From: Mucisphaera calidilacus
GTDB lineage: Bacteria > Planctomycetota > Phycisphaerae > Phycisphaerales > Phycisphaeraceae
Reading direction: 5' to 3'
Length of the DNA stretch: 32,000 nt
NCBI RefSeq assembly: GCF_007748075.1
Contig: NZ_CP036280.1
Location: 3,180,001 to 3,212,000, forward strand
The position numbers and the translations under genes are program-made. The notes below the pieces were generated by a model. That model was not told the DNA's origin. It worked only from the letters and a program-made list of their open reading frames with translations, and searched no databases. Position 1 is the stretch's first letter; the number at the start of each line of letters is the position of its first letter. Positions 13,133 to 32,000 of this stretch are shown one piece after another.

Positions 13133-13160
13133 GCCCGCGCTGAGAGGCGCGGGTTTTTTT
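13133..13160 (+). terminator. rho-independent terminator closing the plus-strand operon; it overlaps the lgt stop codon
   Basis: Stem cccgcgc (13134-13140) pairs with gcgcggg (13147-13153) across the loop tgagag, followed by seven T (13154-13160). Confidence 0.75.
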
Positions 13161-14154: not shown

Positions 14155-14236
14155 GGGGGTATTAGAACAACTCAGGCAGAGAGGGTCGGCGGGGATTATG
14201 ATAAGTTGAACTATAGTTGATTATTGCGGAGGCGTG

Positions 14237-15070: not shown

Positions 15071-15110
15071 TTTGCCCCCCCGCACCTATAAAAATAGCTG
15101 AGGAAGCTAG

Positions 15111-15136
15111 GGTCTCCTGGCTGCAAGGCCAAGACC
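15111..15136 (+). other. imperfect hairpin downstream of the DUF3800-like gene (no U-tract)
   Basis: GGTCT-cc-TGGC-tgcaag-GCCA-AGACC, 41 nt after the stop at 15070. Confidence 0.4.
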
Positions 15137-15201
15137 ACACGGCACGGGGCCGGCGTTCGCTTCATCAGCTGTTAGAAGTCTAATCGGCAATCATCGATCG
15201 T

Positions 15202-15218
15202 CAATCCAACTTGGATTG
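15202..15218. repeat. perfect 8-bp inverted repeat (caatccaa c ttggattg)
   Basis: Read directly from the sequence. It lies in the non-coding stretch between the DUF3800-like gene and the rnr 3' end. Function unknown. Confidence 0.8.
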
Positions 15219-15283
15219 AAACCTGATGATTCACCCGACCATTTGACACGAGGATCAGCCTTAAGCTGTCTTCAGGCAATTAC

Positions 15284-17632: not shown

Positions 17633-17639
17633 GGTTTTC

Positions 17640-18674
17640 TTACGGGTTCACGATCGCGCGTGCCCTCGGGTCGAGGTCGATGGCGGGATCGAGGAGCAGT
17701 TGGCTCCAGGTGTTGAGGTCGTTGGCGAGTGCGTTCCAGTCTTCGCGGATGAGATGCCGCTGAAGGTTGGTGGGGGTCTGGGTGTTGGGGAAGAGCATTT
17801 CCCGTGTGAGGTCGAGGATCTGGTCGACGACGCGGATGGTGTCGGCGGCGAGGGGTGCCTGGGGGTTCTGCTGGAGCATGGTCTGGGCGCGTCGAGCGTT
17901 GGCGTGCCCGAGCGCGGCGACGTCGGCGAGGAGGGGGGTGATCTCGACGCCATCGGACCTGGCGCGGATGAGCCAGCGGAAGGTCTGGGTGAGGGCTCGC
18001 TGTTCGGTGGCGAGTGAGTTGGGTTTGACGTTGTTGCTGAGTCGGAGGTAGAGGGCGTCGATGAGTTTCTGGTGTGCCAGGGTGGTGTCGTAGCTGTCGA
18101 TGGCCTCGGTAAGGCGGATGGCGGCGGCCTCGGAGGTTTCGATGGCGAGTTGGCCGGCGAGGAGGTCGAGGTGTGCGGTGATTTCTTCCTGGTTGAGTTG
18201 TGTCCGTGCCTCGGGGACCTCGAAGCATCGGATGGCCCAGTAGCGTACGGCTGCGTTGGGGTCGTTGATGCGTGTGGCGGCGAGTTCAAGTCCTTGGTGC
18301 GACTTGAGTTCGGCGAGAATGATGAGGGTGTTGAGGCGTACGGCGAAGTCTTCGTTGTCGAGGTTGGGTTTGAGTGCCTCGACGGTGAGTCCGGTGTAGA
18401 TCTGGAGGAAATTCTGGGAGGCGCTGGGTCTTCGGAGGGGGTTGGTGAGGCTTCGTCGGGAGCGTTGCCGGAGGTCGGCGTCGTCCTCGGCGAGTGCCTG
18501 TGCGAGTTCGTTGATATAGATCTGGACGGCCTGGGTTTGTCCGTCGGTGAGGGGGTCTGCCGTGTAGATCTCGGAGGGCAGTCGATCCTGGGCCAGCAGG
18601 GTAGCTGCGGGGAGGATCAGCAGTCCGAGGGCGGCTGACTGGAAGTAACGTATTAGCGCCTTTGGGCCGTTCAT
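17640..18674 (-). CDS. secreted hypothetical protein with HEAT-like repeats
   Basis: 344 aa. Signal-peptide-like N-terminus (ALGLLILPAATLLAQD). Two HEAT-like motifs (DNEDFAVRLNTLIILAEL, NDPNAAVRYWAIRCF). Tightly packed between the sigma-54 activator and rnr. Confidence 0.55.
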   Translation of the reverse strand: MNGPKALIRYFQSAALGLLILPAATLLAQDRLPSEIYTADPLTDGQTQAVQIYINELAQALAEDDADLRQRSRRSLTNPLRRPSASQNFLQIYTGLTVEALKPNLDNEDFAVRLNTLIILAELKSHQGLELAATRINDPNAAVRYWAIRCFEVPEARTQLNQEEITAHLDLLAGQLAIETSEAAAIRLTEAIDSYDTTLAHQKLIDALYLRLSNNVKPNSLATEQRALTQTFRWLIRARSDGVEITPLLADVAALGHANARRAQTMLQQNPQAPLAADTIRVVDQILDLTREMLFPNTQTPTNLQRHLIREDWNALANDLNTWSQLLLDPAIDLDPRARAIVNP

Positions 18675-18741
18675 CTACTTCTATCGCGCGTCAGATACAG
18701 GGTTTCCGGACTTGGGACGTTACCGGTGGAGCGGTGTGGCG

Positions 18742-20364
18742 TCAATTACGGGGGTTGTTTTCGGGGTCTTCGAGTTGGAGGTCGCGGACTTTTTTGTTGA
18801 GGGTGTTGCGGTTGATGCCGAGGAAGTCGGCGGTGCGTATTTTGACGCCATCGTTGAAGGCGAGTGCTTCCCGGATGAGGTGTCGTTCGATTTCCTGGAT
18901 GACGTTGGCGTAGATGCGTCCCTCGTCGGTGTGGTGCTGGCTGATGGCCTGCTGTGCGAGTCGGGCGCAAAGGGCGTCGATGGACTGGTCGGAGCCGGTG
19001 GTTCGTGTCTGCTGGGCGAAGAGTCGGATCTGGAGGGAGAGTAGTTCTTCGGTGAAGTCTTCGGAGGCGGAGAGGACGACGGCACGTTCCATGGCGTTCT
19101 CGAGTTCGCGGACGTTTCCCGGCCAGGGGTACCGGAGGAGGGTGTTCATGAGGCTGCGTGAGACTTTGCGGAGGTTTTTGTTGTTTTCTCTGTTGAAGCG
19201 TTCGAGGAAGTGGTCGACGAGGAGCGGGATGTCTTCGCGTCGGTTTCGGAGGGGAGGGAGGTGGATGGTGACGACATTGAGTCGGTAGTAGAGGTCTTCG
19301 CGGAAGTTACCTTTGCGGACTTCGTGTTCGAGGTCGAGGTTGGTGGCGGCGATGACGCGGACGTCGATCTGTCGTGTGCGGTGGTCGCCTACGCGTTCGA
19401 GTTCGCGTTCCTGGAGGACGCGTAGGAGTCGTACCTGGAGTTGCGGGTCGAGGGTTCCGATCTCGTCGAGGAAGATGGAGCCGCCGTCGGCGGCCTCGAA
19501 ACGCCCTGTTTTATCGCGTATGGCGCCGGTGAAGGATCCTTTGACGTGTCCGAAGAGTTCGGACTCGAGGAGTTGTGGCGCGAGGGCTCCGCAGTTGACG
19601 CGGATGAGGGGTTTGTGTCGTCGGGGCGAGTTGTAGTGGATGGCTTTGGCGACGAGTTCCTTGCCGCAGCCGGTTTCGCCAAGGATGAGGACGGTGGCGC
19701 GTGATTCGGCGACCTGGGCGATGGAGGAGAGGACGTCGAGCATCGCGGGTGCGGTGCCGATGATGTTGTCGAATTTGTAGCGTGTGCGGAGGTCGTCGCG
19801 TAGGAGCTGGTTCTGGGCGATCCAGTGGGAGCGTTCGATCTGGACGAGGTTGTGGAGTCGGTAGGCCTGGGACATGAGTCCGGCGATGATGGTGAGGATT
19901 CGGGCGTCGGTCTGGAGTTGACGGTCGTTGACGAAGGGTTTGTCGATGCTGATGGCGCCGACGAGTTGGCTGGCGTCTTTGAGGGGGATGCAGATGAAGC
20001 TGACGGGGGGTGCGTCGGGGTCGGTTTCGCTGGGGGACCGTGCGCCGGTGCGGTTGAGGAAGTCGGGGTGTTTGCTGATATCGGGTATGACGGCGGGTTC
20101 GCCTGTGTCGAGGACGGTTCCGGTGACCCCTTCGCCTCGGGCGTATCGTCCGCGTTGTTGTTCCTGGGGCGAGAGGCCGGTGGAGGCGACGGTTTTGAGG
20201 CAGTCTTCCTGCTGATCGTGGATGACGAGAGAGGCGCGGAGGATGCCAAGGCGTTGTGAGAGGACGGCCATGGCGTGCTGGAAGATCTCGGGGAGGTCGA
20301 GGCCGTCGCCAAGGATCTGGCTGATCTCTTCAAGAATGTCTAATTCTTGTTCACGTCCGGTCAT
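18742..20364 (-). CDS. sigma-54-dependent transcriptional activator, GAF sensor + AAA+ + Fis-type HTH (NifA-like architecture)
   Basis: 540 aa. GAF-like N-terminal domain. Walker A LGETGCGKELVA. GSFTGA loop (a variant of GAFTGA). GGSIFLDEIG. PPLRNRREDIPLL. WPGNVRELEN. C-terminal HTH (RTADFLGINRNTLNKKVRDL). Confidence 0.9.
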   Translation of the reverse strand: MTGREQELDILEEISQILGDGLDLPEIFQHAMAVLSQRLGILRASLVIHDQQEDCLKTVASTGLSPQEQQRGRYARGEGVTGTVLDTGEPAVIPDISKHPDFLNRTGARSPSETDPDAPPVSFICIPLKDASQLVGAISIDKPFVNDRQLQTDARILTIIAGLMSQAYRLHNLVQIERSHWIAQNQLLRDDLRTRYKFDNIIGTAPAMLDVLSSIAQVAESRATVLILGETGCGKELVAKAIHYNSPRRHKPLIRVNCGALAPQLLESELFGHVKGSFTGAIRDKTGRFEAADGGSIFLDEIGTLDPQLQVRLLRVLQERELERVGDHRTRQIDVRVIAATNLDLEHEVRKGNFREDLYYRLNVVTIHLPPLRNRREDIPLLVDHFLERFNRENNKNLRKVSRSLMNTLLRYPWPGNVRELENAMERAVVLSASEDFTEELLSLQIRLFAQQTRTTGSDQSIDALCARLAQQAISQHHTDEGRIYANVIQEIERHLIREALAFNDGVKIRTADFLGINRNTLNKKVRDLQLEDPENNPRN

Positions 20365-20522
20365 GATTGCCTATTAAAGCATCATCTGGCTATTTTCACA
20401 AGGTGATTATTGCGCAATGATGGGGTTGAGGAGGTGCGGGAGGGGTGGCGCACGGTCTGGCGCGTCGAGGCGTCTGGCCGTTGGGGGCATTGAGATTATT
20501 AGTTGTTTATCTGTCTGTTTTT

Positions 20523-22016
20523 ATGGATGAGGATGGTCTGGTTTGGGCGCACATGGGTGGGGGTTGGGTTCCTTGTGACGCGGGTAGCTGCGTGATGAGG
20601 AGGCTCGCCTTGGGACCGAAGCGATTTGACGTTGATGTGCTAGCCCGTCGGGTAGCGGAGCATGCGGAGGGGCGTGAGCCGTGGCTTCGCCGGCTGTGGG
20701 CTTACTACCGGAACCCGGTGACGCCTGTGGAGGGTCCGGGTGGTTTGCGTCATCGATCGGCTCAGGAGGTGGGGCTGCCGGAGCGGCTTCGGTCGGGTCA
20801 GCGTGAGGTGGTGACGGAGAATGACATCGCGTGGCGGCTGCACGCGTTGGTGGATTTCATGTTCGGCAAGCCGGTGGTGATCCGGAGCGAGGCGGGTTCG
20901 GCGGGGTGTCGTGTGTTCGTGGAGCGTTTTCTGGGGTCGTTGTTCGAGCGGAGCGGCGGGGTCGGTTTTTTCCAGAACATGGCGTTGCTGGGTTCGGTGT
21001 ACGGGTACGTGGACGTGCTGGTGCGGGTGGACGACGCGACGCGTGGTGGCGGGGGTGATTCGCCTGAGTCGCTGGCGGGTCGTCTTCGGCTGGAGCTGGC
21101 TGAGGCGCCGCGTGCGGTGCCGACGACGGACGAGCGTGATTACCGTCGGCTGGCGGGTTATGCGGTTCGCTGTCGGGTGGGGGGTGGTGGCGGCGAGGGG
21201 GGTGTGACCGAGCGTGTGGAGGCGTGGACGTCGTCGGGTTATGGCCGGTTCGAGCGTGTGGGTGAGAAGGGTTCGCTGGCGGAGGTGGCGTCTGCGGAGA
21301 ACGTGCTGGGGCGGGTGCCGGTGGTGCACATTCAGAATCTTGCTCAGCCGCTCCGGTACGCGGGTCTGAGTGATGTTGAGCCGTTGATCCCGTTGCAGGA
21401 CGAGTTGAACACGCGGCTGTCGGATCGTGCGAACCGTGTGACGTTTCAGTCGTTTCGGATGTACCTGGGCAAGGGGATTGATCGGTTCACGGAGCGTCCG
21501 GTGGGTCCGGGTCAGATGTGGTCGACGGACAACCCGGAGGCGTCGATCGAGTCGTTCGGGGGTGATGCGTCGAGTCCGTCGGAGGAGGCGCATCTGAGTG
21601 AGGTCCGTGACGCGATGGACAAGACGAGTGGCGTAACGCCTATTGCGGCGGGTCTGATCCGTGGGAAGGTCGGGAACCTGACGAGCGAGAATGCGCTGCG
21701 TGTGATTCTGATGGGAACGCTGGCGAAGACGGACAAGAAGCGTGTGACGTACGGGGATGGTCTTGAGCGTGTGTGCGAGCTGGCGTTGCACGCGGCGGAC
21801 GTGCTGGGTTGGTACCGGACGGAGACTGGTGACCGTCGGGTTCGGCTGGAGTGGCCGAACGTGCTTCCTCAGAGCACGTCGCAGGTGTTGTCGGAGGCTC
21901 GGGTGAAGGCGGAGCTGGGTGTTCCGCGTGAGCGACTGCTGGACGAGTTGGGTTACGGCGCGGGCCCGGGTCTTGGGAACGGGATGAGCAAGCATCAGGA
22001 GGTGACCGGTGGATGA
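20523..22016 (+). CDS. phage portal protein (SPP1 Gp6-like type); start uncertain (in-frame candidates 20445, 20523, 20553, 20595)
   Basis: WLRRLWAYYRNP, ENDIAWRLHALVDFMFGKPVV, VVHIQNLAQPLRYAGLSDVEPLIPLQDELNTRLSDRANRV and a C-terminal helical region fit the portal family pattern. The upstream codons 20445-20522 run through an AT-rich, promoter-like stretch. Confidence 0.75.
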   Translation: MDEDGLVWAHMGGGWVPCDAGSCVMRRLALGPKRFDVDVLARRVAEHAEGREPWLRRLWAYYRNPVTPVEGPGGLRHRSAQEVGLPERLRSGQREVVTENDIAWRLHALVDFMFGKPVVIRSEAGSAGCRVFVERFLGSLFERSGGVGFFQNMALLGSVYGYVDVLVRVDDATRGGGGDSPESLAGRLRLELAEAPRAVPTTDERDYRRLAGYAVRCRVGGGGGEGGVTERVEAWTSSGYGRFERVGEKGSLAEVASAENVLGRVPVVHIQNLAQPLRYAGLSDVEPLIPLQDELNTRLSDRANRVTFQSFRMYLGKGIDRFTERPVGPGQMWSTDNPEASIESFGGDASSPSEEAHLSEVRDAMDKTSGVTPIAAGLIRGKVGNLTSENALRVILMGTLAKTDKKRVTYGDGLERVCELALHAADVLGWYRTETGDRRVRLEWPNVLPQSTSQVLSEARVKAELGVPRERLLDELGYGAGPGLGNGMSKHQEVTGG

Positions 22017-22425
22017 GGTTGTGCACGAGGGCGACGGGGTTGTGGACGAGCGTGTGTTGTCGCTGGAGCGTGAGCGTGATGCGTTGGCGGAGCGGCTGAG
22101 TGCTTCGGAGGCGGCGGTGGGTCGGCTGGAGCGTCGTGCGGCGTTGGACGCGTTGCTGGCGGATTCGGAGGTGGTTGATCTGGAGGCGGCGCGTCTGTTG
22201 ACGGAGGCTGCGGTGGAGCAGATGGACGAGGCGGACCTGGCGATGGCGGTGGAGGATCTTCGTCGTCATCGGCCTTACCTGTTTCGTTGTCGGGGCGTGG
22301 ATGAGGGTCAGGGCGTGATGGGCGAGGAGCCCGAGGGTGGTCCGGTTGAGGCGGCGCGTCGTGCGCGTGCCTCGGGTCATCGGCGTGATCTGTTGGCGTA
22401 TCTGCGGCTGCGTCGGTCGCGATGA
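22009..22425 (+). CDS. scaffolding-like protein (helical, acidic body, basic C-terminus)
   Basis: 138 aa, Ala/Glu/Leu/Arg-rich and predicted coiled-coil (LSLERERDALAERLSASEAAVGRLERRAALDALLA), ending in a basic tail (RRDLLAYLRLRRSR). It sits between the portal and capsid genes. The start overlaps the portal stop by 8 nt. Confidence 0.5.
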   Translation: MDEVVHEGDGVVDERVLSLERERDALAERLSASEAAVGRLERRAALDALLADSEVVDLEAARLLTEAAVEQMDEADLAMAVEDLRRHRPYLFRCRGVDEGQGVMGEEPEGGPVEAARRARASGHRRDLLAYLRLRRSR

Positions 22426-22454
22426 GTGCGGGATGAACGTGAAGGAGTTTGAGG

Positions 22455-23633
22455 ATGGCATTTACGGGTAAGGCGACGTACACGGCGGGTTCGACGCTGC
22501 CGGAGCAGGCGGAGGACGTGTCGGACATCGTGGGGATTGTGAGTCCTTACGAGACGCCTCTGCTGGACGCGTTGGGTGATCCGGGTCGTTCGGCGACGGG
22601 TACGGTTCACGAGTGGCTGGAGGACGCGTTGCTGCCGAACACGGACCGGATCAACGATTCGTCGTTCACGGACGCGGACGTTGACACGTCGTTCGTGGTG
22701 GAGAACGGTGATCGTTTCCGTGTGGGTGATCAGGTTCAGGTGTCGGGTTCTCGTGAGGTGATGCTGGTGACGGGCGTGAACACGGGGACAGACACGCTGA
22801 CGGTGGTTCGTGGTTACGGCGGGACGACGGCGGAGGATCTTGCGGACGAGCAGGAGGTTCGGATCCTGGGGAACGCGGCGTTGGAGGGTGATGCGTCGCC
22901 TGTGGCGCGGTTCACGAACCGGACGCGTAAGCAGAACTACACGCAGATCTTCACGTCGTCGGTGGAGGTTTCGGGGACGGTTCGTGCGACGCGTCAGCTG
23001 GCGGTGTCGGACGAGCTGGATTACCAGAAGCAGGAGCGTCTGCGTGAGCTGGCTCGTGATCTGGAGAACTGCGTGATCAATGGTGTGTCGGCGAGCGGTT
23101 CGCCTGAGGGCTCGTCGTCGGTGCGTCGGACGATGCGTGGGATCATCCCGCACCTGAGCACGAACGTGTTCACGAGTGGCGCGGGCGATTTCCCGGCGGG
23201 CGAGACGGTGAGCAGTGTGGACCATCACCTGACGGAGGCGCAGCTGAACCTGGCGATGCGTTCGATCTGGGAGTCGTCGTCGGGTTCGGTGGATCTGATT
23301 GTGGTGGGCGGTGCGCAGAAGCGTCGGATCAATGGTTTCGTGACGTCGAGTCGCGGCTACACGGCGTCGGACACGCGTTTCCGTGATCTGGTGAGTGTGT
23401 ACGAGAGTGATTTTGGTGCGTGTCGGGTGATTCTGTCGCGTTGGGTTCCGGCGGACACGGTGCTGCTGCTGGACTCGTCGCGGATTGACGTGCTGCCGTT
23501 GTCGGGTCGGAGTTTCCACTACAAGGCTTTGGCGGCGACGGGTGATGCGGACGCGGGTCAGTTGATTGGTGAGTACACGCTTGAGCTTCGGAACGAGCAG
23601 GCGCACGGGGTGATCCGTGGGCTGGCGGCGTAA
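22455..23633 (+). CDS. major capsid protein, SU10/DUF5309-like (HK97 fold)
   Basis: ATG at 22455 sits 8 nt after aaggag. VHEWLEDALLP near the N-terminus, a size of about 390 aa and a position after the scaffold match my memory of the DUF5309 capsid family. Confidence 0.7.
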   Translation: MAFTGKATYTAGSTLPEQAEDVSDIVGIVSPYETPLLDALGDPGRSATGTVHEWLEDALLPNTDRINDSSFTDADVDTSFVVENGDRFRVGDQVQVSGSREVMLVTGVNTGTDTLTVVRGYGGTTAEDLADEQEVRILGNAALEGDASPVARFTNRTRKQNYTQIFTSSVEVSGTVRATRQLAVSDELDYQKQERLRELARDLENCVINGVSASGSPEGSSSVRRTMRGIIPHLSTNVFTSGAGDFPAGETVSSVDHHLTEAQLNLAMRSIWESSSGSVDLIVVGGAQKRRINGFVTSSRGYTASDTRFRDLVSVYESDFGACRVILSRWVPADTVLLLDSSRIDVLPLSGRSFHYKALAATGDADAGQLIGEYTLELRNEQAHGVIRGLAA

Positions 23634-23713
23634 GCGGCGGGGTGTCGTGGCGGGTCGTGCCGGAGGCGGCGCGGCCCGTTTTGGTTCGGTGGTCTGTGGG
23701 AGTGAGTGACGCG

Positions 23714-24343
23714 ATGAATTTTTCAGAGGATCGTGATCTGCTGGCGTATGAGCCGGAGGTGTTTTCGGAGGTTCCGTTTGCGGCGCAGGAGCGTGTGTCG
23801 ATTGCGGACGGTGTGGTTACGGGTTCGGTGCTGAGCAGCGTGTCGGCGGACTTCGTGGCGGCCGGGGTTTCGGCGGGGTGCGTGGTGCTGCTGGATCGTG
23901 TGGCGCACGAGGTGGTGGAGGTGCTGGACGGGCAGTCGCTTCGGGTGTCGCGGCTGCGGGTGCGTGCGTCGGATGCGTTGGTGTCGGCGGCGGAGGGTGA
24001 GGGTGTGGCGGTTCGGGTGCGGACCTTTGCGGCGCAGGCGTCGCTGGTGCACGACCTGTTGCTGCGTCTGCTGGGGCTGGAGGGTGAGGATGGTCTGGGA
24101 GAGGGTTCGGTGGTGTCGCTTGGCGCGGTGTGTCGGCTGGAGTGCCTGGGGGCGCTTGAGCTGATTTACAGCGCGGCGGCGTCGGTGGGAGGGGCGAACG
24201 AGTCGGTGCTGGCGAAGTCGGCGTTGTACCGCGGCCGATTCCGGCGTGCGTGTCGTGAGACGACGGTGGGCGTGGACGTGGATGGCGACGGGCTGGCTGA
24301 TGAGCGTCGGGGTTTGGGGCTGGTGTCGCTGGTGCGTGCGTGA
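23714..24343 (+). CDS. hypothetical phage-cluster protein (possible head-tail adaptor, by position only)
   Basis: 209 aa from ATG 23714 (MNFSEDRDLLAYEPEVFSEV...). It is a long ORF on the stop-rich plus strand, and the next gene overlaps its stop (GTGA). Confidence 0.55.
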   Translation: MNFSEDRDLLAYEPEVFSEVPFAAQERVSIADGVVTGSVLSSVSADFVAAGVSAGCVVLLDRVAHEVVEVLDGQSLRVSRLRVRASDALVSAAEGEGVAVRVRTFAAQASLVHDLLLRLLGLEGEDGLGEGSVVSLGAVCRLECLGALELIYSAAASVGGANESVLAKSALYRGRFRRACRETTVGVDVDGDGLADERRGLGLVSLVRA

Positions 24344-24732
24344 GGGGGTGGTTTGTGCTGAGGTTTGGTGATGGTCAGCTGGCGGGTGAGGGTGAGAGCC
24401 GGTTGTTGTCGCTTGAGCGTGTAACGCGTGTTCGGCGGGGCGACGGGTTGGGTGGTGTCGCTGTGGTGGTGGCGTCTGGCGAGGCGGCGACGGTGGTGCG
24501 TTATTCGGTGACGGTGCGTTGCGCGTCGTCGGCGGCGATGGATGCGGCGGTGGACGGGGTGTTGTCGTGGTCGGACGGTGTTGAGCGTGTGCTGGAGGAT
24601 GGTTCGGGTCGGCGGTGGCGTGACGCTTTGCTGGTGCGTGCGGAGGTGGCTTCGTGCGGGCGGGTGGGGTTGTTGTGGGGCTGCGGGCTGGTGCTGGTGT
24701 TTGAGACGGGCGGGATGGTGCGTGATGCCTGA
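24340..24732 (+). CDS. hypothetical phage-cluster protein
   Basis: 130 aa. GTGA overlap with the upstream gene and an 8-nt overlap with the downstream gene. No recognised family. Confidence 0.5.
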   Translation: MRGWFVLRFGDGQLAGEGESRLLSLERVTRVRRGDGLGGVAVVVASGEAATVVRYSVTVRCASSAAMDAAVDGVLSWSDGVERVLEDGSGRRWRDALLVRAEVASCGRVGLLWGCGLVLVFETGGMVRDA

Positions 24733-25417
24733 GGTGGGTGCGGTGCCTGCGGGTCTGTTGATGACGGCGGTGATGGAGGGTTCGGACGAGCACGCGGAGG
24801 CGGTTCGGATCGGCTGGGCCGAGCCGCTGGCTGCGGGTCGTGCGGTGGTGGTGTGGGTGGATGGGGAGGTGGCGGCGTGGACGGGCCACGAGGGTGATCG
24901 TTGGTTGTGGGTGTTGATGGATCGTCGGATGGCGCATCGGGTGGCGGTGCGGGAGTTGGGTCTGGAGGCGTTGCTGGGCGGCGGTGTGGTGGCGGCGGAG
25001 GCGGACGGTCTTCGTGTGGTGCGTGACACGTCGTGGCCGGTGGATGCGGGTCTGCGTGTGTCGGGTGACGGGGGTGCGTTGGCGTGTGCGGTGTGGCCGG
25101 CGGACGTGGCGCGTGAGGGCTTCGGCAGCCGTTTTGGGGTTGGGCCGTTTGGTGTTGAGGGTGAGGGCGGGCCGGGCCTGGGCGGCGGGATTCTGGGTGA
25201 TGGCGGTCTGGGTTCTGGCGGAACGGCGGTCGTGGTGGATGGTTCGGTTCGGCGGCGGCTGGGCGGGCGTGTTTGTGTTTCGGTGGTGGGTGAGGGTGGT
25301 GGTGTGGTGAGTGAGGCGTGTGTGGAGGCTGTGCCGCTGGGCGACGGCGTGTCGGTGGGCGGTGCCGTGGTTGAGGGTGGGGTAATGCGTGTGCGCGATC
25401 GTGAGGTGTTGCGATGA
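24725..25417 (+). CDS. hypothetical phage-cluster protein
   Basis: ATG at 24725 within track ORF 24542..25417 (MPEVGAVPAGLLMTAVMEGSDEHAEAV...). The stop overlaps the next start (ATGA). No recognised family. Confidence 0.5.
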   Translation: MPEVGAVPAGLLMTAVMEGSDEHAEAVRIGWAEPLAAGRAVVVWVDGEVAAWTGHEGDRWLWVLMDRRMAHRVAVRELGLEALLGGGVVAAEADGLRVVRDTSWPVDAGLRVSGDGGALACAVWPADVAREGFGSRFGVGPFGVEGEGGPGLGGGILGDGGLGSGGTAVVVDGSVRRRLGGRVCVSVVGEGGGVVSEACVEAVPLGDGVSVGGAVVEGGVMRVRDREVLR

Positions 25418-26586
25418 GTGAGTGGAGTCCTGAGGACCGTGTGTTGCTGGCGCAGGTTGAGGATGCGGCGACGGGTGTGCCTTACATCGAGACGGGTCGT
25501 AGTCCGTACTACGCGGAGTTTCGTCGGATGGTGGAGCGGCTGGCGCGGGTTGCGGAGCGTGGGAACGACCTGCGTGTTTATCGAGACGGGTTGTTGTCGG
25601 TGGGTGTGCGTGGCGGTCGGTGTCGGGTTGCGGGGGCGTGTCATGAGGTCGCGTCGGTGGCGGGGATGGCGGTGGTGGGCCATGGGTTGACGCGGGTGTG
25701 GGTGGACGCATCGGGTGAGGTGCGGGTGTCGGTGGATGCGTTTCCGGAGGATCGGTCGGCGCACCTGCGTCTGGCGGAGGTGTTTGCGGAGGAGGGTGCG
25801 GTGGTTTCGATCACGGACCTTCGGGGCGAGACGCAGCTTCAGTCGGTGGACGCGAGCGTGCTGGGTCTGACGGCGACGGTGGCGGAGCTTGATCGCGTGG
25901 TGGCGGGTGTTGATGCGGGGGTGACTTCGTCGGCGCTGGGTGTGTTGTGCGGGGGTCCGATGTCGGTGGCGGACGCGTACCACGGTCACGCGGGTTATCA
26001 GTCGGATGAGGATGCGGAGGTGTCGTTTACGGTTCGCAATGCGTCGTCGGGCTCGGCGGCGGGCGTGATGTTGTCGCTGAGTCTTCCTGCGTGGTTGAGC
26101 GAGCCGACGCGGCTGCGTGTTCGGCGTGAGGGCGGGTGGCTGGAGCAGGAGGTCGGGGGGACGGGTTATGCGTTGGTGGGCGGTGTTCCGCTGGCGCTGG
26201 TTCTGCCTGGTGTTCTGACGGGTTCGGTGGTGGATCGTCTGGTGGGTGTTGTGCCTTGCGACGGGACGGTGGCGGGTGTGGTGCTGAGTGTGGGCAGGCA
26301 TCTGCAGACGTCGGAGGTGTTGGATGGTCTTGAGGTTTCGCTGCGTGTGAACGGGCGGTTGTTGACGGACACGCCTGCGCGTCTGCGGGTTTCGGACGGG
26401 GTGTCGAATCTGTGCACGGACGCGGGGGATGGCGAGGCGGCGTTGATGTTTGAGGATTCGGTGTGCGCTGTGTCGCGTGGGGAGTTGGTGACGGCGACGA
26501 TCACGCGTACGGCGTCGGGCGTGGTGAGTCAGGAGGCGGAGGACGTGGCGGTGCTGGTGCTGATGCGTTCGGGTCGTGTGATCTGA
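25414..26586 (+). CDS. hypothetical phage-cluster protein, 390 aa; its N-terminal ~150 aa are paralogous to the next gene
   Basis: Long plus-strand ORF. The shared module includes DAATGVPYIETGRSPYY ... LRVY ... VGVRGGR ... AHLRLAEVFAEEGAVVSITDLRGE. The C-terminal part looks beta-rich. Confidence 0.6.
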   Translation: MSEWSPEDRVLLAQVEDAATGVPYIETGRSPYYAEFRRMVERLARVAERGNDLRVYRDGLLSVGVRGGRCRVAGACHEVASVAGMAVVGHGLTRVWVDASGEVRVSVDAFPEDRSAHLRLAEVFAEEGAVVSITDLRGETQLQSVDASVLGLTATVAELDRVVAGVDAGVTSSALGVLCGGPMSVADAYHGHAGYQSDEDAEVSFTVRNASSGSAAGVMLSLSLPAWLSEPTRLRVRREGGWLEQEVGGTGYALVGGVPLALVLPGVLTGSVVDRLVGVVPCDGTVAGVVLSVGRHLQTSEVLDGLEVSLRVNGRLLTDTPARLRVSDGVSNLCTDAGDGEAALMFEDSVCAVSRGELVTATITRTASGVVSQEAEDVAVLVLMRSGRVI

Positions 26587-26599
26587 GAGGGGATGAGCG

Positions 26600-27064
26600 A
26601 TGACGATTTCGGTTGGTGACCTGGATGAGGCGTCGGTGGAGGCGTTGGCGGGGACGCGTGATGCGGCGACGGGTTTTGAGTATGCGGAGCGTGGTCGTCA
26701 TCCGTATTACCGGTGGCTGATGAACACGCTGCGGTTGTTGTCGGCTTCGTCGCTGGGTGATTTCCGGGTGTTGTCGGCGTCGGAGGCGGAGGGGTTTCCC
26801 GCGGTGACGGTGCTTGGGGGTCGTGCGTCGCTTGGGGGTGTTGTGGTGGCGTATGAGGGCGGTTTGTTTGACCTGTCGCTGATGAACAACGCGGTCGTGT
26901 TTGTGTGGCTGCGTGCGGTGTCGGGTGCCGCGGTGGTGGAGGTGGGCGCGGAGGCTGACGGTTGGCCTGGCGGCGTGCACCTGAAGCTGGCGGAGGTCGA
27001 GGTTTCGGGCGGGCGTGTTGTCTCGGTGCTGGATCGTCGGAAAGAGGTCGTGCTTTCGGTCTGA
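26600..27064 (+). CDS. hypothetical phage-cluster protein, 154 aa; stand-alone copy of the module at the N-terminus of the preceding protein
   Basis: DAATGFEYAERGRHPYY ... FRVL ... VTVLGGR ... VHLKLAEVEVSGGRVVSVLDRRKE aligns by eye with the upstream protein. ATG follows gagagggg. Confidence 0.6.
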   Translation: MTISVGDLDEASVEALAGTRDAATGFEYAERGRHPYYRWLMNTLRLLSASSLGDFRVLSASEAEGFPAVTVLGGRASLGGVVVAYEGGLFDLSLMNNAVVFVWLRAVSGAAVVEVGAEADGWPGGVHLKLAEVEVSGGRVVSVLDRRKEVVLSV

Positions 27065-27081
27065 GAGGTGGCGGTGTGGTG

Positions 27082-27825
27082 ATGAGGCTGGTGGATTTTG
27101 AGGTTGCGGGCTGGGGTGAGTTCGGCGGGTCGGGTCCGGTTGAGCGGGCTTCGTATGCGGAGCGTGTGTTGTCTTTGGGGCCTGCGGGTTACTGGCGGCT
27201 GGGCGATGACGGGCCTGGGGTTGCGGACCGTGCGGGCGGGCCGGCAGGGCTGGTGACGGGCGGTGGGGTCACGGGTGTGGCGGGTTCGCTCGGGTGTGAT
27301 GTCGATGGCGCGATGCGTTTTGAGGGGAGCGGAGCGGTTGCGGTGGGTCGTGGTGTTCTGCCTGCGGATGGTTCGGCGGTGACGATCGGGTGTCGGGTGC
27401 GTATGACCGCGGCGGTGAAGGGTGTGCTGGTGAGTCAGTACGAGCAGAGCGGGGGTGTTGCGGACCCGCAGCGGTTCGGTCTGCGTGTGAGTGCGGAGGG
27501 CTGCGTGGGCTGGTGGAAGGGCGGGGTCATGCTGGCGGAGAGTGCGGTGTCGGTGTCGGATGGCGATTGGCATTCGGTGGTCGGGTCGCGGTCGGGCTCG
27601 GGCGATGTGGTGTTGTGGGTGGATGGCGAGGTTGCGGCAGGGGGGAGCGACGGCCAGGGGTTTCAGGCAACGGAGACGACGCTCGGGTGTTTCCCGGGCG
27701 TGTTCTCGCTGACGGGCGCGTTGGATGAGGTGTTCGTGGTGCCCGATGTGGTTGAAGCGGAGGCGGTGCGGTCGTTGCACGCGATGGCGGTTGGTGTGCC
27801 TGAGGTGATCGGGGGTGCGGCGTGA
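27082..27825 (+). CDS. LamG / concanavalin-A-like lectin domain protein
   Basis: ATG at 27082 inside track ORF 26962..27825. YWRLGDDG..., AMRFEGSGAVAV, VTIGCRVRM, DGDWHSVVGSRSGSGDVVLWVDGE and LTGALDEVFVV follow the Laminin_G_3 pattern. Confidence 0.7.
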   Translation: MRLVDFEVAGWGEFGGSGPVERASYAERVLSLGPAGYWRLGDDGPGVADRAGGPAGLVTGGGVTGVAGSLGCDVDGAMRFEGSGAVAVGRGVLPADGSAVTIGCRVRMTAAVKGVLVSQYEQSGGVADPQRFGLRVSAEGCVGWWKGGVMLAESAVSVSDGDWHSVVGSRSGSGDVVLWVDGEVAAGGSDGQGFQATETTLGCFPGVFSLTGALDEVFVVPDVVEAEAVRSLHAMAVGVPEVIGGAA

Positions 27826-29894
27826 CGAGGATGGTTCAGGACGCGGCGGCGCGGTTCGAGGATTTCGGGACGCGTGGTGTTCGGCTGGAGGTGGATGGTG
27901 ATCTGCGCGGTGTGGTGTGTGGTTTAGAGCTTGCCGGTGGCGGTTCGGAGGTGCACGTTCGTCTGGCGGTGCGGGCGTCGGGGTTGACGGCGGGTCGTGT
28001 GGTGGTGTTGGGGTGCGGGTCGGCGGAGGGCGCGGTGTGGTGGCTGGAGGCGGACGCGGGGCTGGGTGCCTTGGTGCTGCGCGTGCGTGATGGCGGGTCG
28101 GTGGTGTGGCCGTGGTCGCGTGGGCCGTCGTGGAGTGTGGTGGAGGTGGGGGCGTCGGCTGCTGAGGATGTGTTGCGGCTTCAGGTCAACGGGGTTGAGG
28201 TGGGTGTGTTGCCGGGGGTGAGTGTCGGGTCGCTTGCGGCGTTGGATGTGGGTGTGTTGTGGCGGAGCGGCGATGCGGCGGGCGTGGTTGATGTTGACCG
28301 GCTGGCGGTGGGTGACGGGCCGATCGGCGTGGATGGGGTTGCGTCGTCGGATGAGGGTGTTGCGGGGGCGTCGCGTTGGGTGGTGTTGTATCGGCCTGAC
28401 GATCCGGATTCGGTGGCGTGGGTGGAGGCGTACCGGTCGCGGAGGGGTGTGCCTTACGCGAACCTGATCCCGGTGGTGACGACGGGGGAGGAGGTGGTGG
28501 ACGAGGCGGGGTATGCGTCGCTGGTGGATCAGGTGCGTGGTTATCTGGAGCGGCATGGTCTGGCGGATCGTGTGGCGGGTGTCCTGGTGGGTTACGGGGT
28601 GCCGAGTTATGTGTCGCTGGTATTTGAGCGTGTGCGGCTGCCGATTTCCTCGTTGCTGGCGACGGACGCGTTGGCGTTGACGTCGGTTGAGAACCCATTG
28701 CTGGGTCGGGCGGAGCGGTTGGAGGTTGTGGATTGTGCGGGTGCTCGGATGGGCGCCCGGTGTGACGGGGCGACGCTAGCGGAGGCGTTGTCGCTGATTG
28801 ACCGAGCGGATGCGGTGATGGCGGGTTCGCTTCGGGACGCGGGTGCGGCGCGTCTGTGGGTGGACACGGAGGGGCCGCTGGGAGACTTGGCGGGTACGAC
28901 GCGGGCGCGTCACGCGGCGTTCGTGGCGGGTGATGTGGCGTGCGCGACGCGGATGGAGGTGATGTCGGGTGCGTTTGATCGTGTGGAGGGTGAGGGGTTG
29001 GCGTGGACGGGGTTGTCGGGGGCGTATCCGGAGGGGTTCTTCGGTGGGTCGGGTGGTCCGCGTGTCCTGTTCGGGCAGGTGAGTCTGGCGGCGTGTGGTT
29101 TGAGTTCGGTGCGTGGGGTGGTGGACGGTTCGGCGTGGGCGCGGGGAGCGATCGAGGCGGGTTATGCGGCGGTGGTAGGAACGGGCGGGACGTATGGTTC
29201 GTCGGAGGTTCCGCGAGTGGATGTGCTGGTTGATCGGCTGCTGTGTGGGTGGACGCTTGGTGAGGCGTGGCAGGTTTGTCTGCCGAGGCTGCGGAACGTG
29301 GTGGGGCTGGTGGGTGACCCGTTGATGGTTGTGCCGATGTCGGGCGCGGGCTGGGACCTGGTCGCGGGTGATGACGAGGGCCTGGGGGCGGCGGCGGCGT
29401 GTCGTCGCGTGGCGGATGAAGCGGCGCGTCTGCCTGAGGGGGCTGAGGGCGTGCGGCGACGGTGGCTGGTGGCGGCGCGTGGTGTTGATGGTTCGCTGAG
29501 CGATGGCGTGCGTGGCGTGGGTGTGGTTTACGAGGGCGGGTCGTGGCGGCGGCGTGTGGTGGACTGGGTGTGGCCTGAGGCGGCGGGCTGGTTGTTGGCT
29601 GCGGATCGTGAGGGTCTGCGGGGTGTGGTGATCTGGCCTTGTGGTCTGCGGGAGGCGGGTGTGGTCTCGGCGGAGCTTGAGGCGGAGCGTGCGGGCGGGG
29701 TGACGGTGTCGTCGCTGGGGGTTGATCCGGGGTCGGATCGGCTGGGGTTTGTGGCGGCGATGCCTGATGAGCGTGTGCGTTATCGCGTCCGTGTGCGGAC
29801 GTCGGAGGGTGTGGTGTCGGAGACGCCCTGGTCGGCCTGGTGGGAGCCTGAGGCGGCGGGTGTGGCGCCGGTGGTGCTGGGAGGTGCGGGATGA
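27822..29894 (+). CDS. 690-aa multidomain protein: N-terminal beta-sandwich (LamG-like), central TIGR03790-like region, C-terminal FN3/Ig-like segment
   Basis: GTGA overlap with the LamG gene. The central segment RWVVLYRPDDPDSVAWVEAYRSRRGVPYANLIPV...LVGYGVPSYV resembles my memory of the uncharacterised TIGR03790 family. The C-terminal RYRVRVRTSEGVVSETPWSAWWEP is FN3-like. Confidence 0.6.
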   Translation: MTRMVQDAAARFEDFGTRGVRLEVDGDLRGVVCGLELAGGGSEVHVRLAVRASGLTAGRVVVLGCGSAEGAVWWLEADAGLGALVLRVRDGGSVVWPWSRGPSWSVVEVGASAAEDVLRLQVNGVEVGVLPGVSVGSLAALDVGVLWRSGDAAGVVDVDRLAVGDGPIGVDGVASSDEGVAGASRWVVLYRPDDPDSVAWVEAYRSRRGVPYANLIPVVTTGEEVVDEAGYASLVDQVRGYLERHGLADRVAGVLVGYGVPSYVSLVFERVRLPISSLLATDALALTSVENPLLGRAERLEVVDCAGARMGARCDGATLAEALSLIDRADAVMAGSLRDAGAARLWVDTEGPLGDLAGTTRARHAAFVAGDVACATRMEVMSGAFDRVEGEGLAWTGLSGAYPEGFFGGSGGPRVLFGQVSLAACGLSSVRGVVDGSAWARGAIEAGYAAVVGTGGTYGSSEVPRVDVLVDRLLCGWTLGEAWQVCLPRLRNVVGLVGDPLMVVPMSGAGWDLVAGDDEGLGAAAACRRVADEAARLPEGAEGVRRRWLVAARGVDGSLSDGVRGVGVVYEGGSWRRRVVDWVWPEAAGWLLAADREGLRGVVIWPCGLREAGVVSAELEAERAGGVTVSSLGVDPGSDRLGFVAAMPDERVRYRVRVRTSEGVVSETPWSAWWEPEAAGVAPVVLGGAG

Positions 29895-31543
29895 GGATGG
29901 CGGAGGGTTCGCTGGGTCGTGTGGTGCGTGATCGTGGCCTGCTGGTGGTTGTGGACGGTCGGGTGGTTGAATCGGCGCGAGTGACGTCGATGTCGTCGTG
30001 TTTGCCGCTTGGCGGGTGCGAGGCTGAGGTTGAGGTAGAGGTTGAACGTGGTGCGGGTTCGGTGCGCGAGGTTGTGATCGGGGAGCCTTATCGGCTTGGC
30101 GATGCGCGTGTGGGGCTGCGTCGGCTGGTGGTGGGTGGTTTGGTTGAGGATGTGGGGCGTGGTGATCGGTCGGGTTTGCGGCGGTGCTGGCGTGTGCGTG
30201 ATCGCTGGATGCGGTTGCTGGATCAGGAGCTTGCGTCGCTGCCGGGGTGGTGGCTGTTGTCGGACGCGGGTTCGCTCGGCGTCGGGGCGGATGCGAATCG
30301 GTCGGCGACGTCGGTGGATGTGGATGGGCGTTCGGTGTATCGGCCTGGGGGCGGGTTGCGTTGGACGGCGGGTAAGGCGTTGGGATTGTTGCTGGCGGTG
30401 GCGGGTGTTCGCGTCGTCTGGCTGGTCGATCGGGGTCGGCTGGATCGTGTGCTGGAGCGTGATGTTGTGCTGTCGGGTCGGTTGCGTGGTGTGCTGTCGT
30501 TGCTGGCTGAGGACCACGGGTTGGTGCTGCGGTGGGACGAGCGGCATGGCGTGGTCGAGGTGGGTGTTCGTGGTCATCGGGGTCGGCGGGTGAGTTATCC
30601 GTTGGGTGGTGATGAGCGGCGTCGGCCGAGGTGGTCGGTGGTGTCGGGCGGTGTTTCGGGGCGGTCGGTGCGTGGGGTATGTCGTTCGTCGGGTTGGCGT
30701 GTGGAGTCGACGTTTGAGCTGCGTCGTGGCTGGGACCCGGGGCTGGAGGGGTTGGCGGATGATCAGTACGACCCGGAGACGTCGGACGATTTCACGTCGG
30801 TGTCGTCGGTCTTTCGTCGTTGGGTGTTGAACGAGGACGGGGCGTATTCGGGTGCGCCGTATGGTTTGCCGGCCTATGACCTGAGCGCGTTGTTTGATGA
30901 CGAGCGTGTGGGCGCGTGTTCGCTTAGGTTTCGTGCTCCGCTGACGCGTGACACGGATGGCGACCCGCTGCCGGTGCTGGTGGAGGTGAGTGAGGATGGG
31001 GGTTTGCGTTGGCGTGTCGTGGCGGATCGTCTGCTGTTGAGGGATCGCGCGGGGGTCGATCTGACGGGCCTGTTGGCGGGATCGGATTACCTGGCGGCGG
31101 CTCGTGCGGGGACGGTTCGGTGTCGGGTGACGGCGCGGCTTGATTCGCCTCGTGCGGTGGAGGCGGTTCGGTGGTGGGGCAACGCGTTCACGGGGGTTCA
31201 CGAGGACGTGGTGTTTGATGCGGGGCGTCGGTTTGTTTTTGCGCGGGTGGACCGGACGAGTCGTTTCTGGTCGCGGGTTCGGTCGGGGGCGCGTGTTGCG
31301 GCGGAGCGTGATGATCGAGAGCGGATGCGTCGTTGGCTGTTAGAGCGGCTTGAGGGGGGTGCTTCGGCGTCGCGGGTGCGTCTGGAGGCGTCGGGTCGCG
31401 AGACGTGGCTGCGGCCTGGCGACCGGTTGTGTGTGGGTGCGCTGGGCGGCCGGACGGTGTTGTGCGAGCGTGTGGGCTGGTCGGCGGGTGCGGGGCGTGC
31501 GGTGCGGTCGGTGATCGAGGGGCGATTGGAGGGTGTCAGATGA
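29891..31543 (+). CDS. 550-aa hypothetical phage-cluster protein (tail or baseplate candidate, by position only)
   Basis: ATGA overlaps at both ends and a long ORF on the stop-rich strand. I recognise no family. Confidence 0.55.
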   Translation: MRMAEGSLGRVVRDRGLLVVVDGRVVESARVTSMSSCLPLGGCEAEVEVEVERGAGSVREVVIGEPYRLGDARVGLRRLVVGGLVEDVGRGDRSGLRRCWRVRDRWMRLLDQELASLPGWWLLSDAGSLGVGADANRSATSVDVDGRSVYRPGGGLRWTAGKALGLLLAVAGVRVVWLVDRGRLDRVLERDVVLSGRLRGVLSLLAEDHGLVLRWDERHGVVEVGVRGHRGRRVSYPLGGDERRRPRWSVVSGGVSGRSVRGVCRSSGWRVESTFELRRGWDPGLEGLADDQYDPETSDDFTSVSSVFRRWVLNEDGAYSGAPYGLPAYDLSALFDDERVGACSLRFRAPLTRDTDGDPLPVLVEVSEDGGLRWRVVADRLLLRDRAGVDLTGLLAGSDYLAAARAGTVRCRVTARLDSPRAVEAVRWWGNAFTGVHEDVVFDAGRRFVFARVDRTSRFWSRVRSGARVAAERDDRERMRRWLLERLEGGASASRVRLEASGRETWLRPGDRLCVGALGGRTVLCERVGWSAGAGRAVRSVIEGRLEGVR

Positions 31544-31800
31544 GTGGGCTGGAGTTGGCGCCGCTGGCGCAGCTGGGTGCGGCGGGACTGATGGGCGCGT
31601 TGTGGGTGTGGGAGCGGAACCTGACGCGTTGCCGGGAGCGTGAGCTGAGTGAGGCTCATGAGCGTCTGATGGTTCAGCGTGAGGCGTTGCAGGAACTGGT
31701 GGCGTTGGTGGGTCAGAACGCGCGGGCGTTGGAGGGTTTTGAGCAGACGCAGAATCGGCTGGCTCGTGCGGTGGAGCGTCTGGCGGCCAGGGGTGCGTGA
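31540..31800 (+). CDS. small N-terminal-TM, coiled-coil protein (i-spanin-like or holin-like)
   Basis: ATG at 31540 (ATGA overlap) inside track ORF 31405..31800. Product MSGLELAPLAQLGAAGLMGALWVW, followed by about 60 aa of helical, charged sequence. Confidence 0.45.
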   Translation: MSGLELAPLAQLGAAGLMGALWVWERNLTRCRERELSEAHERLMVQREALQELVALVGQNARALEGFEQTQNRLARAVERLAARGA

Positions 31801-31819
31801 TAGCGATTAAACTGGGTGG

Positions 31820-32000
31820 ATGACTGGCGTGTACCGAGTCGTGATGGTGTTGGTGTTCCTGCTGTCGCTGGGGTGGGTTTCGGGTTGCGGCCAGGGCGAC
31901 GGTACGTCGGCCTTCGGTGAGCCTCCGCCGACGGGCACGTGGTATCCCGAGCCGGTGGCGTTGCGTATTCACCCGTCGACGCGTTACGTGCAGGAGGGGG
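31820..32000 (+). CDS. putative lipoprotein, N-terminal fragment (runs off the right edge)
   Basis: My translation reads MTGVYRVVMVLVFLLSLGWVSGCGQGDGTSAFGEPPPTGTWYPEP... It has the lipobox VSGC and a Pro-rich mature N-terminus. The frame is open to the window end. Confidence 0.45.
   Translation, partial: MTGVYRVVMVLVFLLSLGWVSGCGQGDGTSAFGEPPPTGTWYPEPVALRIHPSTRYVQEG

Follow-up and report, generated by a model that had tools for sequence, protein, structure and literature searches.

Within a 32,000-nucleotide stretch of the Mucisphaera calidilacus chromosome (NZ_CP036280.1, positions 3,180,001 to 3,212,000 of the forward strand; hereafter the window), one co-directional, overlap-chained gene cluster of ~12 kb runs from ~20595 to beyond position 32000. 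We conclude, with a probability of about 0.72, that this cluster is a structural locus of a tailed phage that was domesticated long ago in the class Phycisphaerae and has been inherited vertically, and that it is not a prophage. Class-wide gene order, co-divergence with the host, purifying selection combined with host composition, and host genes on both sides effectively exclude two readings, that of a remnant in decay and that of an active prophage or satellite. The cluster looks like a previously undescribed bacterial domesticated-phage particle system; a search of the accessible literature, which covered the species description and a class-wide analysis of Phycisphaerae genomes, gave no earlier description of it.

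Head and tail-tip genes form a single cluster

A preliminary description of the window had read the order portal, scaffold-like protein, capsid protein, and matches to PF05133, PF06810 (weak) and PF17236 supported this order. Its view of the cluster as a head module beginning at the portal was right about the head genes but missed the tail-tip (hub, fibre-like) and envelope genes that are also present. The genes are as follows, all on the plus strand.

20595-22016, plus strand: portal, SPP1 gp6-like (PF05133, E 4.9e-14; phrog_64 and phrog_104, E 8e-20)
22009-22425, plus strand: scaffold-like protein, 138 aa (weak PF06810 Phage_scaffold match, E 0.023)
22455-23633, plus strand: major capsid protein (MCP), SU10 type (PF17236, E 4.6e-90; phrog_1328 major head protein, E 3e-82)
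23714-24343, plus strand: g04, universal head or neck protein (beta-barrel plus three-helix bundle in an AlphaFold2 (AF2) model)
24340-24732, plus strand: g05, small protein, Dit-like or tube-initiator-like (weak assignment, from weak matches of family members)
24725-25417, plus strand: g06, Gly/Phe-rich protein (conserved family in 57 loci)
25414-26586, plus strand: g07, fibre-like (profile of the N-terminal ~150-aa domain against PDB 8kec)
26600-27064, plus strand: g08, short paralogue of the g07 fibre N-terminal domain (family alignment, 8kec profile match)
27079-27825, plus strand: g09, concanavalin-A-like lectin (Laminin_G_3) domain, putative receptor-binding protein (PF13385, E 4.8e-9)
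27822-29894, plus strand: g10, multidomain protein, 690 aa (lectin-like N-terminus, TIGR03790-like centre, FN3-like C-terminus)
29891-31543, plus strand: g11, predicted baseplate hub of the Mu gp44 / T4 gp27 / VgrG fold (AF2 model and Foldseek)
31540-31800, plus strand: g12, 86 aa, N-terminal hydrophobic helix and coiled coil (i-spanin-like or holin-like by topology)
31820-32000, plus strand, cut by the window end: g13, lipoprotein (signal peptide, lipobox ...LGWVSGC)

All the 4-nt and 8-nt start/stop overlaps listed previously were present, the start of the scaffold-like gene overlapping the portal stop by 8 nt. The portal open reading frame (ORF) is open from GTG 20445, which had been taken as its start; N-termini of orthologues favour ATG 20595 (473 aa), and the same comparison placed the likely starts of g04 at 23714 and of g09 at 27079. 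The cluster thus encodes the set needed for a portal-containing, scaffold-assisted capsid of HK97 fold (SU10 type). It also encodes a short tail tip, consisting of a Dit-like protein, a gp27/gp44-like hub and four putative receptor-binding proteins of fibre or lectin type.

The cluster is conserved across Phycisphaerae and under purifying selection

MCP homologues numbered 4839 in the database. The 120 best, which were listed, were 67-100% identical and ~389 aa long; those with names belonged to Phycisphaerae or Planctomycetota, and many lay on Mb-size contigs. The translations of MCP and g11 are 100% identical to M. calidilacus proteins at NCBI. A scan of one genome per species found an MCP relative in at least 551 species-representative genomes. 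In the best 80 of these the MCP was 65-73% identical, under the labels Phycisphaeraceae, Phycisphaerales, Sedimentisphaerales and Tepidisphaerales, together with some inconsistently labelled planctomycete metagenome-assembled genomes. Among themselves, Phycisphaerae MCPs were 59-100% identical (median 66%).

We compared architecture by tblastn mapping and all-against-all ORF clustering on 84 non-redundant loci, the window and 83 from relatives (identified below by L numbers). A full-length MCP was present in 84/84. Where enough upstream DNA was available, a full-length portal and a scaffold between portal and MCP were each found in 65/66 loci, and g04 was full length in 74/75. The conserved order is portal, scaffold, MCP, g04, ~122-aa protein, ~258-aa protein, fibre-domain protein, lectin-domain protein, hub, and it held across loci labelled Phycisphaerales, Sedimentisphaerales and Tepidisphaerales. 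The preliminary description had named absence from relatives and signs of decay as arguments against domestication, and had proposed synteny and selection as the check; relatives keep the order in 83 loci, and their head-gene ORFs are full length in the counts just given.

We compared 17 loci in which the left neighbour of the cluster is the gene for a GAF/sigma-54/HTH_8 activator. For pairwise identities, Mantel r was 0.80 between activator and MCP and 0.87 between activator and portal, the observed value being reached in 0/2000 permutations in both tests. The ratio of non-synonymous to synonymous substitution (dN/dS) was 0.03-0.13 for MCP, portal and g04 in unsaturated pairs (dS 0.26-0.9), with 0.086-0.13 for the portal and 0.03-0.10 for the MCP. 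In the pair L053-L071 (dS ~0.27) it was 0.030 for MCP, 0.086 for portal and 0.031 for g04; comparisons of L043 with L053 or L071 gave 0.09-0.13. Between Mucisphaera pairs, where dS is near saturation, values were 0.09-0.26 for head genes, 0.17-0.42 for g06-g11 and 0.15-0.23 for host neighbours.

The distal genes evolve quickly. Between Mucisphaera relatives g06-g11 were 41-56% identical (g07, 51-56% at the amino-acid level to L003 and L001) and host neighbours 79-84%. ORF lengths of g06-g11 were kept despite this divergence, g07 being exactly 390 aa in three genomes. Fast divergence with kept length is the pattern expected of receptor-binding proteins.

Cluster genes share the composition of the host. 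Their third-codon-position GC skew was +0.50 to +0.85, that of host genes in both orientations +0.32 to +0.79, and that of the nearby DUF3800 gene -0.01, in agreement with the contrast drawn in the preliminary description. An ordinary defective prophage remnant, intact here by chance, would account for a locus holding only phage structural genes, and the recently acquired, unskewed DUF3800 islet lies a few kb away. It would not account for the same order and intact ORFs in 83 relatives' loci, out of at least 551 MCP-encoding species genomes, nor for purifying selection, co-divergence with a host gene, host skew and a conserved chromosomal site. We consider such a remnant very improbable.

Host genes border the cluster on both sides

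The window ends inside g13, and the right boundary was read from syntenic relatives. In L003 (Mucisphaera sp., MCP 85% identical) the left flank is that of the window: acetyl-CoA hydrolase, Lgt, RNase R, HEAT protein and sigma-54 activator. On its right, the hub is followed by a 95-aa and a 158-aa protein and then by a convergent host phosphoglucomutase (PGM) gene. L001 and L004 (Phycisphaeraceae) have the same boundary at PGM, L001 with a HAD hydrolase as well, and in L002 (Phycisphaeraceae D3-23) the cluster gives way to RibD and other host genes. The window's g12 and the start of g13 match the last two cluster genes of relatives, the g13 equivalent being the last before PGM in L001, L003 and L004; the cluster therefore ends ~0.5 kb past the window.

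Upstream of the portal only host genes were found in the 84 loci, and these differ by group (flanking genes of relatives were identified from sequence by eye). About 20 Phycisphaeraceae-type loci have the sigma-54 activator, which in the window is the host-type regulator on the other strand that the preliminary description had seen upstream of the portal; eight have DXS, NAD kinase, a TPR protein and a DinG-like helicase; others have M16 peptidases with MurD, or ribokinase with a glycosidase.

These flanks bear on the possibility of an active temperate prophage or satellite (of the type of phage-inducible chromosomal islands, PICIs, or their capsid-forming variants, cf-PICIs) with an odd gene order and its other modules beyond the window. 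The window does end within the cluster, and the preliminary description had accordingly pointed to terminase and integrase genes just past its edge as the finding that would speak for a prophage. In L001-L004 host genes follow instead, within ~0.5 kb of the cluster end, with no terminase, integrase or lysis-enzyme module beyond that end, and no integrase, terminase or replication gene was found within 8-10 kb on either side in these relatives. No tRNA gene lies in the window, and an integrase was not detected. Furthermore, a mobile element would not hold one site and co-diverge with its neighbour. We consider an active element very improbable.

Predicted structural proteins

The portal matched PF05133 with 52.6 bits (gathering cutoff 25.5) over profile positions 56-391 of 416, and the MCP matched PF17236 (DUF5309, an HK97-fold family) with 302.5 bits (cutoff 24.1) over positions 5-292 of 292. 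For the scaffold-like protein, a precomputed weak PF06810 match is on record for the orthologue in L004. Apart from these three proteins and g09, no cluster protein matched Pfam, PHROG or NCBIfam, save for g10 with a TIGR03790 match (E 4e-13) under the curated cutoff. Sequence-profile searches of the PDB with g04, g05, g06, g10 and g11 gave nothing significant; only the N-terminal domain of g07/g08 was matched, to residues 58-145 of the long tail fibre of PDB 8kec (E 2.9e-7).

The AF2 model of g04, a protein with 1431 database homologues, has a mean confidence (pLDDT) of 89.8. It had no significant structural match in the PDB, and in BFVD only its beta-barrel domain matched, to N-terminal domains of phage tail or fibre proteins (E ~1e-3). 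For g05, family members matched Sipho_tail/RIFT (two members, E 0.029), Mu DNA_circ_N (0.014) and Dit_like (0.06), all weakly. g06 had no Pfam, PHROG or PDB match.

The ~150-aa N-terminal domain of g07 (window 25414-25870) also occurs as a stand-alone protein, g08 (26600-27064), and in other orders it is joined to a variety of C-terminal domains, in proteins of 262 aa and longer. The recurrence of one domain with differing C-terminal fusions suggests a shared anchor domain with exchangeable distal parts. The PF13385 match of g09 is recorded for its orthologues in L001-L004 too. ORF clustering grouped g10 with g09 through an N-terminal ConA-like lectin domain; the PDB profile matches of g10 (pentraxin, carbohydrate-binding module, FN3) were weak (E 0.4-0.7).

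g11 had no Pfam sequence match. Its AF2 model (pLDDT 80.8) gave 47 Foldseek matches in the PDB at E<=1e-3, with probability ~1.0, led by the MuSo2 43-kDa tail protein 3cdd (E 5.5e-11), the Mu baseplate 9ki1_G (2e-10) and Mu gp44 (1wru), and including spikes of extracellular contractile injection systems (eCIS) and PVC, VgrG and T4 gp27. Against 3cdd, 9ki1_G, 1wru, 7aef_q, 4mtk and 1k28, E values ran from 5.5e-11 to 1e-8 and the target-normalised TM-score reached 0.65. On the strength of this model, g11 is predicted to be a hub of the gp27 / Mu gp44 / VgrG fold. A podovirus-like reading, taken from the SU10 capsid family, was rejected in view of this hub fold and of the nearest cultured MCP, which comes from a myovirus.

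At the distal end, the g12 family is present in 32 loci, and the members of a functionally equivalent family (cluster 24) always have a transmembrane (TM)-like segment. g13 shares its lipobox and a conserved RIHPSTR[FY]V motif (RIHPSTRYV in the window) with another family (cluster 19), and some relatives have a ~80-aa two-TM holin-like protein among the distal genes. These envelope proteins resemble spanins or holins by topology, and a function in release is a guess; no endolysin domain was found in the cluster. The picture that emerges is of a particle in which a capsid with its neck would end in a short tip made up of a hub and several fibres.

No packaging motor was recognised in or beside the cluster

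In 20445-32000, Pfam, PHROG and NCBIfam profiles hit no terminase, integrase, repressor or replication family, and no tail tube, sheath or tape measure, which agrees with the preliminary description, where no integrase, repressor, replication gene, terminase, tube or tape measure had been recognised. A terminase hidden among the unassigned proteins was ruled out, since no cluster protein has a Walker A motif and none had a terminase hit with these profiles. No terminase was found in the cluster or flanks of any locus examined, the rest of the genomes not being searched. Homology to RcGTA, a gene transfer agent (GTA), stayed at chance level with the GTA models of NCBIfam and Pfam (NF048001 on the scaffold-like protein, E 0.037, 13.8 bits against a cutoff of 50). 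The defence models of PADLOC-DB matched none of 10 cluster proteins (0 families).

The preliminary description had proposed a domesticated, GTA-like particle system. Domestication of the locus is supported; a GTA function is a hypothesis, and a terminase was not found. We tentatively regard a GTA-like role, in which DNA-carrying, non-replicative particles would rely on a terminase encoded elsewhere, as the most likely one, at somewhat less than even odds.

Head-only loci and capsid genes carried by phages

Among loci with enough downstream DNA, 8/48 were head-only: they hold portal, scaffold, MCP, g04, g12 and the lipoprotein, with the block g05-g11 precisely missing.

Head-only loci: L012 (7429-12824), L015, L026, L043, L045, L053, L071 and L008

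L012 keeps both of its usual flanks, the activator to the left and PGM to the right; the right neighbours in L071 are other host genes, for elongation factor P, cysteine desulfurase and an Mrp antiporter subunit. L012 comes from genome LejiaD_62_11, L053 from UBA5793 and L071 from JBDZVA01. Head genes of head-only loci are strongly constrained (dN/dS 0.03-0.13). The long form occurs in all orders and is therefore presumably ancestral. In the head-only loci, either the tail genes have moved elsewhere or the head has a tail-independent function.

Four phage contigs of IMG/VR carry a solitary host-type MCP gene, full-length or nearly so, among early recombination, replication and methylase genes; the portal, scaffold and g04 of the cluster are absent from them.

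L085:7023-8183, phage-borne MCP
L086:5970-7124, phage-borne MCP
L088:8616-9785, phage-borne MCP
L104:2759-4024, phage-borne MCP
L125:5949-11896, own head module of the first-listed of these phages

The phage-borne MCPs are 80%, 72%, 55% and 49% identical to those of specific host lineages. The 41-kb contig IMGVR_UViG_3300033145_000895 has the copy that is 80% identical to one host lineage (the host-host median is 66%), placed between RecT plus exonuclease and methyltransferase plus primosomal genes. Besides this copy, the phage encodes a TerL, a portal (phrog_156) and a major head protein from another family (phrog_334), all three its own. On the other three contigs the MCP neighbours are a replication initiator and methylase; an integrase with ERF and DnaB; and YqaJ with methylases. 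These arrangements suggest that phages of these bacteria may engage with the particle system of the host, a dominant-negative subunit being one conceivable route, and the phage MCP copy may be a decoy or poison subunit directed against that system.

Such copies raise the possibility of a capsid-based system that acts during phage infection, anti-phage or phage-exploited, and not as a GTA. Host procapsids, whether or not they carry the tail tip, would hijack phage components or compete with them, possibly the phage terminase or DNA, in the manner of a satellite, and phages would counter with an early, solitary copy of the host MCP that poisons or redirects assembly. Besides the four contigs, of which one has a complete head module of its own (phrog_334 head protein, portal, TerL), this is consistent with the strong purifying selection on head-only variants (L053-L071, dN/dS 0.03-0.086) and with a locus that lacks a terminase, as expected if the motor is borrowed. 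However, no PADLOC family matched, no sensor or effector domain was recognised, the phage contigs found are only four and the meaning of their MCP copies is inferred only, while fast-evolving, receptor-binding-like tail-tip genes fit adsorption to cells better than an intracellular role. We regard this system as possible and almost as likely as the GTA-like role; other functions, or a mixture, take the remainder.

A candidate operator upstream of the portal

Two degenerate palindrome copies were found upstream of the portal.

20446-20552, no strand assigned: regulatory region with the two palindrome copies

They read TGGCGCAC at 20446-20453 and GGGCGCAC at 20545-20552, 99 bp apart. In Phycisphaeraceae-type loci the portal is preceded by 1-3 copies of the consensus, TTTGTGCGCACAAA, at a spacing of ~100-113 bp, and GTGCGCAC, with one mismatch allowed, was the commonest 8-mer in 15/16 activator-portal intergenic regions. 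The palindrome was also found in loci with other upstream neighbours (L023, L034); it lies at L034:7600-7750 and L004:7630-7750. It looks like a candidate operator belonging to the cluster.

No consistently placed match to a sigma-54 -24/-12 element (TGGCAC-N5-TTGC) was found upstream of the portal in 17 intergenic regions. The activator is not in the flank of other groups, including loci labelled Sedimentisphaerales, and is a neighbour in one family-level group only. Sigma-54 control by the adjacent activator as a required partner was thus ruled out, for want of a conserved -24/-12 element and of the neighbour outside that group.

Proposed mode of action

Host-controlled expression from the promoter region with its palindromic operator would drive one translationally coupled operon, and phage-like particles would form from its products. 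Any packaging of DNA would call for a terminase from elsewhere in the genome or from an infecting phage. Envelope proteins would help release of the particles, and attachment to cell surfaces would fall to the fibre and lectin proteins, which evolve fast.

Several points weigh against a domesticated particle system of this kind. No terminase was found that could serve as the motor for packaging, the defining activity of a GTA; no tube, sheath or tape measure was recognised that would define the tail architecture; and g05, g06, g08, g12 and g13 lack a firm assignment. Loci with constrained heads and no tail tip are hard to square with DNA delivery unless the tail genes have been relocated. Finally, the Mucisphaera comparisons are near saturation (dS 0.7-2.7), and the window's own right flank lies past its end and is known through relatives only.

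A more specific proposal, which we hold unlikely, is that of a capsid system spread over the whole class and devoid of a terminase, in which the head (portal, scaffold, MCP, g04) and two envelope proteins form the essential part. Such a system would act in conflict with phages without DNA delivery, and phages would counter it with early-expressed, captured MCP copies. If true, it would add a new kind to the cellular systems derived from viruses, distinct from GTAs, tailocins, encapsulins and satellites.

Whichever role applies, the candidate system is present in at least 551 species-level genomes and is extremely conserved. The lack of a terminase in any locus, the head-only forms and the phage-carried capsid gene make both its benefit (gene transfer or defence) and the phage response testable, and M. 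calidilacus Pan265 is cultured, which opens the system to experiment. There is also a consequence for annotation. Locus L087 (IMGVR_UViG_3300031673_016560), a full host-type cluster with portal, scaffold, MCP, g04, g07 and g11 homologues, is filed as viral in IMG/VR; virus-prediction pipelines therefore pick up such loci and count them as viruses.

Host genes and composition of the window

Profile annotation of the window ORFs identified positions 1-20364 as ordinary host genes.

1-20364: Mur ligase; peptide ABC transporter; methylmalonyl-CoA decarboxylase subunits; biotin ligase; acetyl-CoA hydrolase/transferase; Lgt; RNase R; HEAT-repeat protein; GAF/sigma-54/HTH_8 activator
18742-20364, minus strand: the GAF/sigma-54/HTH_8 activator, host, left neighbour of the cluster and divergent from the portal

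The block of Lgt, RNase R, HEAT-repeat protein and GAF/sigma-54 activator adjoins the cluster across genera (window 13159-20364; L003:1763-7897; L004:1-7578). Rfam gave no match, and a promoter and terminator scan did no better than on shuffled sequence.

The whole window shows a very strong plus-strand bias, with G>C and T>A. Over 1-32000, third-position GC skew on the plus strand is +0.3 to +0.85 and AT skew -0.5 to -0.94 for either gene orientation; the compositional bias of this host is extreme and linked to the replication strand. It distorts amino-acid composition and results in many long spurious ORFs. Gene callers were misled in relatives: at L001:1-309 a spurious plus-strand gene was called across the activator, and at L003:12031-12231 a spurious minus-strand gene was called where g05 belongs.

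Of all genes of the window, the DUF3800 gene (14234-15070) alone does not show the skew of the host; its GC is 0.53 and its third-position GC skew -0.01. The gene is missing from the otherwise syntenic L003 and L004, and is therefore a recent insertion between Lgt and RNase R.

Comparison with known systems

Domestication of tailed phages into cellular particle systems is, to our knowledge, limited to a handful of independent cases, none of them in Planctomycetota. Encapsulins, like the cluster, have an HK97-fold shell domesticated by cells, and the head-only variants resemble this cellular use of a capsid. Encapsulins, however, lack portal, scaffold and tail genes, and their defining feature is cargo with targeting peptides, whereas the cluster has a portal and a scaffold (65/66 loci). 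Tailocins of R and F type have a tube, with or without a sheath, plus a tape measure and no capsid genes, while the cluster has capsid, portal and scaffold genes and no match to tube, sheath or tape measure.

In cf-PICIs and other satellites, as in the cluster, a set of head genes, comprising portal, scaffold or protease, MCP and connectors, has been split from a phage genome and relies on functions encoded elsewhere. The solitary MCP on phage contigs hints at antagonism between the cluster and phages. Satellites are mobile, with integrase, replication genes, regulators and usually terminase subunits of their own; the cluster has none of these, is fixed and co-diverges with its host. Nor were the integrase, terminase, lysogeny-control and replication modules of a functional temperate prophage found.

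Escherichia phage SU10 and other PF17236 phages share with the cluster the MCP family and the order portal, scaffold, MCP. The best cultured-phage MCP, 34% identical, is that of the Sporosarcina myophage Lietuvens, in which the order is TerL, HNH endonuclease, portal, minor capsid protein, scaffold, MCP. Unlike the cluster, Lietuvens thus has TerL and an HNH endonuclease before the portal, as well as a full contractile tail.

The GTAs VSH-1, BaGTA, Dd1 and VTA provide precedents for independently domesticated phage particle loci, with no sequence relationship to the cluster detected. For these, particles containing host DNA have been shown by experiment, whereas the Phycisphaerae cluster is known from genes. 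The head, tail and lysis cluster of VSH-1 (Brachyspira hyodysenteriae) was described without a packaging gene recognised within it.

As to the features by which GTAs are recognised, the cluster is chromosomal and vertically inherited, is under purifying selection and has no integration or replication genes; a terminase was found neither in the cluster nor in the flanks of any locus, a search that did not cover the rest of the genome. In RcGTA, the GTA of the alphaproteobacterium Rhodobacter capsulatus, the genes for the two terminase subunits, small and large, come first, and the cluster also encodes a prohead protease, an HK97-type MCP, a tail tube and a tape measure. GTAs of the RcGTA type resemble the cluster in being chromosomal, vertically inherited sets of co-directional phage head and tail genes of ~12-15 kb, kept over a high-rank taxon under purifying selection, with host-like composition and no integrase or replication genes. 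Unlike RcGTA, the Phycisphaerae cluster is without terminase, protease, tube and tape measure, and its MCP is of the SU10 type (PF17236). Relative to RcGTA, the Phycisphaerae cluster would be an independent domestication.

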